Positions 3,068-45,371 of a DNA stretch of 64,000 bases are shown here, piece by piece. Source of the stretch: Escherichia coli (GTDB lineage: Bacteria; Pseudomonadota; Gammaproteobacteria; Enterobacterales; Enterobacteriaceae); assembly GCF_009931435.1 (NCBI RefSeq), contig NZ_CP043414.1. One strand, given 5' to 3'. Each line of letters starts with the position of its first letter. The stretch's first letter is position 1. The notes under the pieces are model-generated. The model saw nothing but the letters and a program-made list of their open reading frames with translations, did no database searches and had not been told where the DNA came from. Made by a program: the position numbers and the translations under genes.

Positions 3068-3155
3068 GGTGAGGTGTCCGAGTGGCTGAAGGAGCACGCC
3101 TGGAAAGTGTGTATACGGCAACGTATCGGGGGTTCGAATCCCCCCCTCACCGCCA
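3068..3155 (+). tRNA. serW: tRNA-Ser (anticodon GGA), long variable arm
   Basis: 88-nt sequence GGTGAGGTGTCCGAGTGGCTGAAGGAGCACGCCTGGAAAGTG...GGTTCGAATCCCCCCCTCACCGCCA with anticodon loop CUGGAAA and class II extra arm; encoded CCA end. Confidence 0.92.
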
Positions 3156-3197: not shown

Positions 3198-3206
3198 GCA
3201 TTTTAT

Positions 3207-3286
3207 CTGCCTGTACGGCAGTGAACGGTATAAAAATCGAGTTTTTCTTTCGGTTGGCTTTCTAAGCTGCCTGTACGGCAGTGAAC
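3207..3286. repeat. two copies of a 20-bp motif ctgcctgtacggcagtgaac (internal palindrome CTGCC-GTAC-GGCAG) spaced 60 bp
   Basis: exact direct repeat at 3207..3226 and 3267..3286, read directly from sequence. Confidence 0.7.
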
Positions 3287-5805: not shown

Positions 5806-6126
5806 TCAGGCTTTTTCTAGCGTACACAGCAATGGATGCTCATTCTCCCTCGCGTACTTGTTCACCATCGCCACTTTGGTTTCTGCAACCTCGGCGGTAA
5901 AGACTCCGCAAATGGCCTTCCCCTGGTAGTGAACAGCGAGCATCAATTGCGTTGCACGTTCTACATCATAAGAAAAGAATTTTTGTAACACGTCAATAAC
6001 AAACTCCATCGGAGTGTAATCATCATTGACTAATATCACTTTATACATAGATGGCGGTTTTAGCGCGTCGCGAACTTTTTCTTCCGCCAGTTGATCAAAG
6101 TCCAGCCAGTCGTTCGTTTTACCCAT
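5806..6126 (-). CDS. clpS: ClpA adaptor / N-degron recognin ClpS
   Basis: 106-aa ORF immediately upstream of clpA on the same strand; sequence matches recalled ClpS. Confidence 0.93.
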
Positions 6127-41682: not shown

Positions 41683-43368
41683 GTGAATATAAACGTCGCC
41701 GAATTGTTAAATGGGAATTACATTCTGTTATTATTTGTGGTCCTCGCGCTTGGGCTATGTCTCGGGAAATTACGACTTGGTTCGATCCAACTGGGTAATT
41801 CCATTGGCGTTTTAGTCGTATCGCTGTTATTAGGCCAACAACATTTCAGCATTAACACCGACGCGCTTAATCTTGGCTTTATGCTGTTTATTTTCTGCGT
41901 CGGGGTCGAAGCTGGACCGAACTTTTTTTCCATTTTTTTTCGCGATGGGAAAAATTACCTAATGTTAGCACTGGTGATGGTTGGCAGTGCGCTGGTGATC
42001 GCCTTAGGGTTAGGTAAGCTGTTTGGCTGGGATATTGGCCTGACGGCCGGTATGTTAGCAGGCTCTATGACGTCAACACCGGTTTTGGTCGGTGCTGGCG
42101 ATACACTGCGTCATTCCGGCATGGAAAGCAGGCAGCTCTCACTGGCACTGGATAATCTGAGCCTCGGGTATGCCTTAACCTATTTAATCGGTCTGGTGAG
42201 TTTGATTGTTGGTGCGCGTTACTTGCCGAAATTGCAGCATCAGGACTTACAGACCAGCGCCCAGCAAATCGCCCGCGAACGTGGCCTGGACACAGATGCC
42301 AACCGTAAGGTTTATTTGCCGGTGATCCGCGCCTACCGCGTCGGCCCGGAGCTGGTAGCCTGGACCGACGGCAAAAATCTGCGTGAACTGGGTATTTATC
42401 GACAAACTGGCTGTTACATTGAACGTATTCGTCGTAACGGGATTCTGGCAAATCCAGACGGTGATGCCGTACTACAAATGGGCGATGAAATAGCGTTGGT
42501 AGGCTATCCCGACGCCCACGCCCGACTCGATCCCAGTTTCCGTAATGGCAAAGAAGTTTTTGATCGCGACCTCCTCGACATGCGTATCGTCACTGAAGAA
42601 GTGGTCGTTAAAAACCATAACGCTGTTGGCAAACGTCTCGCACAACTGAAGTTGACCGATCACGGCTGCTTCCTCAACCGCGTCATTCGTAGTCAGATTG
42701 AGATGCCGATTGATGACAACGTCGTGCTTAACAAAGGTGACGTTTTACAAGTCAGCGGCGATGCCCGTCGCGTAAAAACCATCGCCGATCGCATCGGCTT
42801 TATCTCGATTCACAGCCAGGTCACTGACTTGCTGGCATTCTGCGCCTTCTTTGTTATTGGGCTGATGATCGGGATGATCACCTTCCAGTTCAGCACATTC
42901 AGTTTCGGCATGGGGAACGCTGCCGGGTTGTTATTCGCCGGAATTATGCTGGGCTTTATGCGCGCTAACCACCCGACCTTCGGTTACATTCCGCAGGGTG
43001 CATTAAGCATGGTGAAGGAGTTCGGCTTGATGGTGTTTATGGCAGGCGTTGGTCTGAGCGCTGGTAGCGGTATTAATAACGGCCTGGGCGCGATTGGCGG
43101 TCAAATGTTGATTGCCGGATTGATTGTCAGTCTGGTGCCAGTGGTTATCTGCTTCTTGTTCGGTGCTTATGTATTGCGAATGAACCGCGCACTGTTGTTC
43201 GGCGCAATGATGGGCGCACGCACCTGCGCGCCGGCAATGGAGATCATCAGTGATACAGCTCGCAGTAATATCCCGGCGCTGGGCTATGCGGGCACCTACG
43301 CAATCGCCAACGTTCTGCTAACGCTGGCTGGGACAATCATCGTCATGGTATGGCCAGGATTAGGATAA
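41683..43368 (+). CDS. ybjL: putative transporter YbjL (AAE family)
   Basis: 561-aa two-repeat membrane protein with central soluble region. Confidence 0.85.
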
Positions 43369-43411
43369 AACTGAAGTTGCCCTGAAAATGAAATTTTTTT
43401 GCACAACCGCA

Positions 43412-43440
43412 GAACTTTTCCTCAGGGCATCAGTCTTAAT
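43412..43440 (+). promoter_or_regulatory. sigma-E-type promoter for rybB
   Basis: -35 GAACTT (43412..43417) and -10 TCTTAA (about 43434..43439), about 16-bp spacer, ending 6 nt before the RybB 5' end. Confidence 0.6.
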
Positions 43441-43444
43441 TAGT

Positions 43445-43523
43445 GCCACTGCTTTTCTTTGATGTCCCCATTTTGTGGAGCCCATCAACCCCGCCATTTT
43501 GGTTCAAGGTTGGTGGGTTTTTT
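43445..43523 (+). ncRNA. rybB: RybB small RNA (sigma-E-dependent, Hfq-binding)
   Basis: GCCACTGCTTTTCTTTGATGTCCCCATTTTGTGGAGCCCATCAACCCCGCCATTTTGGTTCAAGGTTGGTGGGTTTTTT matches recalled RybB including the terminator hairpin and U-tail; lies between ybjL and rcdA as expected. Confidence 0.88.
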
Positions 43524-43542
43524 GTTATCTAAAATTTATCTA

Positions 43543-44079
43543 CTACCCTGCAACCCTCTCAACCATCCTCAAAATCTCCTCGCGCGATAGCGGCTTACGG
43601 TCGGTGACAAAATGCAGCGTCATCCCCTCAATAAACGCATCAAGCGCGCGGGCGGTTCCGGGTTCAAACCATTGTTCGAGCGTTTGCTGACTGCGCTGCA
43701 TCCAGTTTTGCATTACCGTTTTTAATAGCGGTTTTCGGCTAGCCAGCGCGTAGAGCTGGTACATCAGCTCCATGTTATCCGGCGTTGCAACCTGTGAGCT
43801 GTAGATCATATCGGTGATAGCCTGGCATGCGCCCGGAGCATCACTAACATCGCTAAAAAATGCCTGATATTGCCGGGACATGATCTCAGTAAAACTGCTG
43901 AACGCCTCCAGCAACAACTCATCAATTCCTGAAAAATAGTAGGTCATCGACCCCAACGGTACCCCGGCAAGGGTAGCAATTTTGCGGTGCGTAACGGCAT
44001 GTATTCCGTAAAGTTTCACCGCCTCCAGCGTGGCCTGGATAATTTTTTCTCGCCGTTGCGGATCGTTAGCGCGACGCAT
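43543..44079 (-). CDS. rcdA: TetR-family transcriptional regulator RcdA (YbjK)
   Basis: 178-aa product from ATG 44079 ([21 protein letters not shown]...), N-terminal HTH. Confidence 0.85.
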
Positions 44080-44162
44080 GTCATTTCCTCTCTCTGCAAT
44101 TGTGTACAAATGTACACAACCTTGCTAATGTTGTCTTCCCTCTTCTTATTTTGACGTGATCT

Positions 44163-45371
44163 ATGACCGTAAATTCTTCACGTAATGCATTGAAACGCCG
44201 AACCTGGGCGCTGTTTATGTTCTTCTTTTTGCCGGGCCTGTTAATGGCGTCCTGGGCAACTCGTACACCTGCTATCCGCGATATTCTTTCTGTTTCGATC
44301 GCTGAAATGGGCGGAGTCCTCTTTGGTCTGTCGATCGGTTCAATGAGCGGTATTCTCTGCTCGGCGTGGTTAGTGAAACGCTTTGGGACGCGTAATGTCA
44401 TCCTGGTCACGATGTCCTGCGCATTGCTCGGGATGATGATATTAAGCCTGGCGCTCTGGCTGACATCGCCCGTGCTCTTTGCCGTTGGTCTCGGCGTCTT
44501 TGGGGCTAGTTTTGGTTCTGCAGAAGTGGCGATAAACGTTGAGGGTGCCGCCGTTGAGCGAGAAATGAATAAAACGGTTTTACCGATGATGCACGGTTTT
44601 TATAGCCTGGGCACGCTGGCAGGCGCTGGTGTCGGGATGGCACTGACGGCCTTTGGCGTTCCGGCAACGGTGCATATTTTATTGGCGGCGCTGGTAGGCA
44701 TCGCGCCTATTTATATCGCCATTCAGGCAATCCCTGACGGTACGGGCAAAAATGCTGCCGATGGCACCCAGCATGGTGAAAAAGGCGTACCTTTTTATCG
44801 GGATATCCAGTTGCTGCTGATTGGTGTTGTGGTACTGGCGATGGCCTTTGCCGAAGGTTCTGCCAACGACTGGTTACCCTTATTAATGGTTGACGGTCAC
44901 GGTTTTAGCCCTACTTCCGGCTCGCTGATTTATGCCGGTTTTACCCTGGGGATGACTGTTGGACGCTTTACCGGCGGTTGGTTCATCGACCGTTATAGTC
45001 GCGTTGCCGTGGTTCGGGCCAGTGCACTGATGGGAGCGTTGGGTATTGGGCTGATTATTTTTGTCGATAGCGCCTGGGTCGCTGGGGTGTCTGTTGTACT
45101 TTGGGGACTGGGTGCCTCGCTGGGCTTCCCGCTGACCATTTCTGCCGCCAGCGATACCGGACCCGATGCACCAACCCGCGTCAGCGTAGTGGCAACGACC
45201 GGTTATCTGGCTTTCCTCGTCGGGCCTCCGCTACTGGGCTATCTCGGCGAACATTATGGATTACGTAGTGCAATGTTGGTTGTACTGGCGCTGGTTATTC
45301 TTGCGGCTATTGTCGCGAAAGCCGTCGCCAAACCCGATACCCAAACGCAGACGGCGATGGAGAATAGTTGA
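44163..45371 (+). CDS. ybjJ: MFS transporter YbjJ
   Basis: 402-aa 12-TM-like ORF. Confidence 0.85.

Follow-up and report, generated by a model that had tools for sequence, protein, structure and literature searches.

Within the window, by which we mean the whole 64-kb stretch of Escherichia coli DNA that was analysed, positions 43445-43523 of the plus strand almost certainly represent rybB, the gene for a 79-nt Hfq-associated sRNA with a sigma-E promoter at 43411-43439 and its own rho-independent terminator. Our very high confidence in this assignment is based on the Rfam family, the boundaries of the RNA, synteny, the conservation of the promoter, covariation in the terminator and the complementarity of the seed to ompC. 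From the literature, RybB is known as an Hfq-associated RNA that represses outer-membrane-protein mRNAs, and on the strength of that work the present strain would be expected to express the gene in a sigma-E-dependent manner, with binding of Hfq and repression of the targets. A rybB gene with a sigma-E promoter at this locus is already known; it is a well-known gene in its usual place, offers nothing new and raises no new biological question. Its recognition from raw sequence matters as a check of annotation quality and is useful for annotating the window. PGAP had placed no feature over rybB (43402-43530) in any of the listed E. coli records that carry its automatic annotation, and among the records listed the gene was annotated only in that of the curated K-12 MG1655.

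Identification of RybB and delimitation of the RNA

A scan of the whole 64-kb window with Rfam 15 at gathering thresholds revealed a match to the RybB model RF00110 at 43448-43526 (+), with a score of 104.8 bits as compared to a gathering score of 40 (E = 1.7e-20). The original prediction had named an Rfam match to the RybB family as its check, and the match obtained is full-length, covering model positions 1-79 of 79 without truncation at 2.6 times the gathering score. No family other than RF00110 was reported by the scan at the RybB interval. The start of the model lies 3 nt inside the 5' end of the RNA. In the curated record of K-12 MG1655, the ncRNA rybB (b4417) is located at 887979..888057, has a length of 79 nt and lies between rcdA and ybjL, and alignment to b4417 sets the limits of the RNA in the window at 43445-43523 (+). 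From position 43445, the RNA sequence opens with GCCACTGCTTTTCTTTGATGTCCCC, and a TTTTTT tail at 43518-43523 follows a G+C-rich inverted repeat. The length of about 79 nt that had been predicted is therefore borne out by the K-12 alignment, with agreement in the end coordinate, and the predicted span of 43402-43523 covers promoter and RNA exactly. The features of the locus are given below in order of position, with their basis in brackets.

41683..43368, + strand: ybjL CDS, aspartate:alanine antiporter family (ORF list; RefSeq annotation of a 100%-identical record)
43411..43419, + strand: -35 element AGAACTTTT, 8/9 identical to the consensus GGAACTTTT (pattern scan; cross-species conservation)
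43420..43432, + strand: promoter spacer of unconstrained sequence, which holds the -23 G>T difference from K-12 (column information; K-12 alignment)
43422, + strand: G>T at -23, within the spacer of the promoter (K-12 alignment)
43433..43439, + strand: -10 element GTCTTAA, consensus GTCAAA (invariant columns across species)
43445..43523, + strand: RybB sRNA, 79 nt, from the G at +1 through the final U of the terminator (RF00110; K-12 b4417 alignment)
43445..43460, + strand: single-stranded target-recognition seed domain GCCACUGCUUUUCUUU (K-12 identity; Rfam conservation)
43470..43478, + strand: A/U-rich linker AUUUUGUGG, just 5' of the terminator (sequence read)
43479..43523, + strand: rho-independent terminator with a 12-pair stem, a 17-nt loop containing a small inner helix, and U6 (MFE fold; covariation)
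43500, + strand: C56U, in the terminator loop (K-12 alignment)
43513, + strand: A69G, on the 3' side of the stem, U41-A69 to U41-G69 (K-12 alignment)
43543..44079, - strand: rcdA (ybjK) CDS, convergent and downstream of rybB (ORF list; RefSeq annotation mapped from locus L001)

Genomic context of rybB

When a 1,201-base query (window positions 43000-44200) was used, matches were obtained in 5,422 of 5,426 complete E. coli genomes. Strain R32_14_1F was 100% identical to the query, and its flanking genes are annotated as ybjL, rcdA and ybjJ, so that the predicted identity of the two neighbours, ybjL and rcdA, is confirmed by the RefSeq annotation of an identical record. For rybB, a matching place with the same synteny was found in 5,418 of the 5,426 genomes, at a median of one per genome, and a match was absent in 8 of the 5,426 genomes searched. 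The end of ybjL is located 77 nt upstream of the RybB transcription start on the same (+) strand, and the stop codon of rcdA lies 20 nt past the RybB 3' end. The gene in the window is thus found in the ybjK(rcdA)-ybjL intergenic region on the ybjL strand, in a layout identical to that of K-12, and this intergenic region is the published site of rybB (PMC1804206).

The PLSDB plasmid collection contained 16 matches to rybB, for example in NZ_CP134663.1 (4.9 Mb) and NZ_CP019246.1 (45 kb). Most of the 16 records are Mb-sized or short non-mobilizable fragments labelled as plasmid; they are probably mislabelled chromosomal sequence, and mobile copies of rybB on plasmids were therefore discarded as an interpretation.

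The sigma-E promoter of rybB

Upstream of the RNA, GAACTT (43412-43417) is followed by a 16-nt spacer and by TCTTAA (43434-43439), exactly as the original prediction had described, and a gap of 5 nt separates the end of TCTTAA from +1 (43445). The consensus for sigma-E promoters consists of GGAACTTTT at -35 and GTCAAA at -10 (PMC1804206). Besides the 8/9 agreement of its -35 element and a discriminator of 5 nt, the promoter in the window has a -10 element which, read as GTCTTA (43433-43438), agrees with the consensus in 4/6 positions; the N16 spacing applies to the framing used in the prediction. The interpretation as a sigma-E promoter is supported by a comparison of 112 loci (see below) and by published work (PMC1804206), but the -10 element is better framed one base further to the left, as GTCTTA rather than TCTTAA, since GTCAAA is the frame in which the consensus was published. 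Both elements are identical to those of K-12.

The motif alone performs weakly better than chance, is weak evidence and does not discriminate. With one mismatch allowed, GAACTT-N16-TCTTAA had a single match in the 64-kb window when 0.25 were expected by chance, and 24 of 100 shuffled windows contained at least one match. With the relaxed pattern GAACTT-N15-17-TCNNA, 2 matches were found in the window versus 1.19 expected. What makes the promoter significant is its placement 5 nt before +1 together with its conservation across other species. A simple scan of 43200-43800 detected no sigma-70-like promoter on the plus strand. Elsewhere in the window, a second sigma-E-like motif, GAACTT-N17-TCAAA, is present at 6072-6099 (+); as a promoter it is probably fortuitous, in view of the 1.19 matches expected by chance.

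According to published work, rybB matches the sigma-E consensus, and in a delta-rpoE strain the activity of the rybB promoter was near background, indicating a strict dependence on sigma-E (PMC1804206). For the E. coli and Salmonella genes, transcription has been demonstrated to depend on sigma-E (PMC1804206; PMC4102768). The rybB promoter belongs to the strongest of the sigma-E regulon (PMC4102768). According to a 2025 study, NsrR dampens rybB transcription through sigma-E and not by robust promoter binding in vitro (PMC12249550). An NsrR operator at the rybB promoter was left out of our model, robust binding in vitro not having been reported in that study.

Conservation of the locus across Enterobacterales

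Species-representative genomes were scanned with an exact 23-nt seed pattern, which yielded at least 120 loci across Enterobacterales. Of these, 112 could be extracted together with their flanks, and they comprised 106 distinct upstream sequences, which were anchored on the transcription start; the genera represented include Citrobacter, Salmonella, Enterobacter, Serratia, Yersinia, Proteus, Providencia and Xenorhabdus. Due to the retrieval by exact seed, nucleotides 4-26 of the RNA are conserved by construction, and independent information comes from the promoter, nucleotides 1-3 and the 3' half.

In 110 of the 112 loci from other species, GAACTT is located at -33 to -28, and columns -33 to -27 hold 1.86-2.0 bits. 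G-12, T-11, C-10 and A-7 are invariant among the 106 distinct upstream sequences, and the exact GTCTTAA variant occurs in 28 of the 112 loci. Over the same 112 loci, the spacer columns -25 to -14 contain 0.06-0.61 bits, with 0.16 bits at position -23, where the most frequent base is T. The homologous RNAs vary in length from 76 to 83 nt.

Fold and terminator of the RNA

In the MFE fold, which has -25.0 kcal/mol for the whole RNA, nucleotides 35-46 pair with nucleotides 64-75 in a 12-pair stem that is followed by UUUUUU, as would be expected from the GC hairpin and U-tail of the original prediction. The 5' half of RybB is essentially single-stranded in this fold, and for this reason the modest folding z-score of the whole RNA (-2.17) is to be expected. 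The consensus structure obtained from 12 diverse homologues comprises 16 pairs, 6 of which show two-sided changes that keep the pair, such as A-U/G-C, U-A/A-U and C-G/U-A. Counting of pair types in 59 distinct homologues is in accord with this covariation. When RNAalifold was run on the 59 sequences after unguided alignment with MAFFT, part of the stem was one base off register, and the pair counts were taken from the cleaner 12-sequence alignment. The hairpin with its U-tail is thus supported by covariation. A simple terminator scan of 43200-43800 gave no terminator; it misses loops longer than 8 nt, the RybB hairpin included, and is uninformative on the terminator.

A deviating terminator was encountered in E. 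coli AR_0017 (NZ_CP024886.1; L004), in which a 9-nt deletion of GAGCCCATC, aligned to window positions 43477-43485, takes out the greater part of the stem's 5' arm. Either a naturally occurring loss of function or a mistake in the assembly may explain this deletion.

Seed domain, Hfq module and proposed mode of action

The seed (nucleotides 1-16) is identical to that of K-12, an identity that extends over nucleotides 1-55. It carries the invariant 5' sequence GCCACUGCUUUUCUUUGAUGUCCCC, is highly conserved (upper-case) in the Rfam consensus and, apart from a weak closing helix of 4 pairs, is unpaired in the MFE fold. Nucleotides 1-8 are perfectly complementary to positions -49 to -42 of the K-12 ompC leader, forming a duplex of -17.4 kcal/mol, and 10 of 1,000 shuffled seeds paired with ompC as well as the genuine one. 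The RybB seed domain has been described as conserved and functional; its motif is common to MicV and VrrA of Vibrio and was selected in randomised-seed experiments (PMC6694218). In the same work, the 3' portion of RybB from E. coli served as a scaffold providing an Hfq binding domain and a rho-independent terminator (PMC6694218). We infer that the linker AUUUUGUGG is part of a putative Hfq-binding module. Together with this A/U-rich linker, the U-tail and the ompC-complementary seed are the sequence features of Hfq-dependent sRNAs that are present here.

Published studies have shown that RybB accelerates the decay of omp mRNAs (PMC1804206) and that MicA and RybB jointly target 31 messages (PMC4102768). 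The mode of action that can be proposed for the gene in the window follows the literature on rybB in each step. Misfolded outer-membrane proteins would cause sigma-E to be freed from RseA, and RNA polymerase containing sigma-E would transcribe rybB from a promoter that would rank among the regulon's strongest. Hfq would then present the single-stranded 5' end of RybB for pairing with many omp mRNAs (ompC, ompA, ompW and others), such pairing would lead to their faster decay, and consequently fewer new porins would enter the stressed envelope, which would constitute a negative feedback on sigma-E activity.

The rybB allele of the window

Over 129 bases, the window differs from K-12 in three single bases, two of them within the 79 nt of the RNA (C56U and A69G) and one in the promoter spacer (-23 G>T). 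The predicted energy of the terminator amounts to -20.9 kcal/mol for the window and to -21.1 kcal/mol for K-12, a difference of 0.2. Since 151 of 5,420 E. coli records contain the 79-nt sequence in identical form, an example of a strain with this allele being NZ_CP074749.1, the window carries an established minority allele rather than a lesion. There is a small chance that the changes (-23T, U56 and G69) have a measurable effect on how efficiently transcription terminates, on the loading of Hfq or on the strength of the promoter; if they had, the feedback loop of the envelope-stress response would operate at a shifted set-point in this E. coli lineage.

Alternative explanations for the interval

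The close spacing of rybB and ybjL invites the question of whether the interval might simply be the 3' UTR of ybjL with its intrinsic terminator, in which case there would be no promoter of its own and the sRNA would arise from read-through or processing of the ybjL mRNA. The common strand and the short distance from the end of ybjL to +1 are compatible with this explanation, and between the ybjL stop codon and the RybB hairpin no other terminator-like site was seen in a scan limited to loops of up to 8 nt. However, the -35/-10 register is fixed in nearly all of the loci compared (110/112) while the surrounding bases drift freely, and such register-locked conservation of a promoter is not expected in a plain 3' UTR and contradicts it. 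In addition, promoter fusions revealed an autonomous, sigma-E-dependent transcription of rybB (PMC1804206), and we consider an origin from the ybjL transcript very unlikely. As no other terminator-like site was found before it, the RybB hairpin may also end ybjL transcripts. Even more improbable is that rybB has decayed or become inactive in the window. This idea could be derived from the number of differences from K-12, one of which falls into the terminator stem, and from the clearly damaged gene of AR_0017 with its stem deletion. Against it, the exchange of U-A for U-G in the stem costs only 0.2 kcal/mol and the other change in the RNA lies in the loop, -23T is placed in an unconstrained column in which T is the commonest base across species, the seed is that of K-12, the Rfam match is full-length with a high score, and precisely this allele is fixed in 151 records of E. 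coli.

Two plus-strand ORFs of 43 and 71 amino acids (43459-43590 and 43475-43690) overlap the interval, and formally the region could encode a small protein instead of an ncRNA. Both ORFs, however, cross the terminator into the convergent rcdA, and conservation tracks base-pairing and not codons. Furthermore, the loop indels that account for length differences among the homologues are not multiples of three, so that there is no conserved reading frame, and the probability of a protein-coding function here is negligible. A 79-nt rybB transcribed from its own sigma-E promoter is the reading that we retain, and no observation spoke against it.

Comparison with known envelope-stress sRNAs

The gene in the window shares with RybB of E. 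coli K-12 (b4417) the locus, the strand relative to ybjL, the length of 79 nt and the architecture of the terminator; seed, -35 and -10 elements are identical, and the predicted stability is essentially unchanged despite the three differences. Family, seed, layout of the sigma-E promoter and synteny are also as in RybB of Salmonella enterica (PMC1804206; Salmonella arizonae locus L082), but the -10 element of Salmonella RybB is of the GTCATAC/GTCATAA type, in contrast to GTCTTAA in the window, and the sequence of the spacer differs.

MicA and MicL, the remaining sigma-E-dependent sRNAs of E. coli, as well as MicV and VrrA of Vibrio, have a sigma-E promoter like RybB and, like RybB, repress mRNAs of abundant envelope proteins as part of the repressor arm of the envelope-stress response (PMC4102768; PMC6694218). 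MicA, MicL and MicV are associated with or dependent on Hfq (PMC4102768; PMC6694218). Nevertheless, these four sRNAs are separate genes at other loci with different overall sequences, and they had no match at the interval studied here.

Other RNA elements and repeats in the window

In the original prediction, RybB was held to be the only non-tRNA RNA gene that could be supported in the window. RybB itself was confirmed, but its exclusiveness has to be qualified, as Rfam also reports naRNA4, ES036 and a lone CRISPR repeat. The hit to naRNA4 (nucleoid-associated RNA) at 30694-30774 (-) reached 75.9 bits and that to ES036/CssrF at 31731-31773 (-) 38.8 bits, the latter barely above its cut-off of 37.6. 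We take naRNA4 to be derived from REP repeats.

A remnant type I-F CRISPR array is located at 3199-3286 (-) and adjoins tRNA-Ser(GGA) at 3068-3155 (+). It consists of the following elements.

3259-3286, - strand: perfect 28-nt CRISPR repeat GTTCACTGCCGTACAGGCAGCTTAGAAA (Rfam CRISPR-DR4, 50.1 bits)
3227-3258, - strand: 32-nt CRISPR spacer (sequence between the repeats)
3199-3226, - strand: degenerate second CRISPR repeat, 23/28 identical (comparison to the perfect repeat)

Further copies of the perfect repeat with up to 3 mismatches were absent from the window. The array at 3199-3286 is presumably similar to the orphan CRISPR3/4 remnant that E. coli carries close to clpA-serW-infA.
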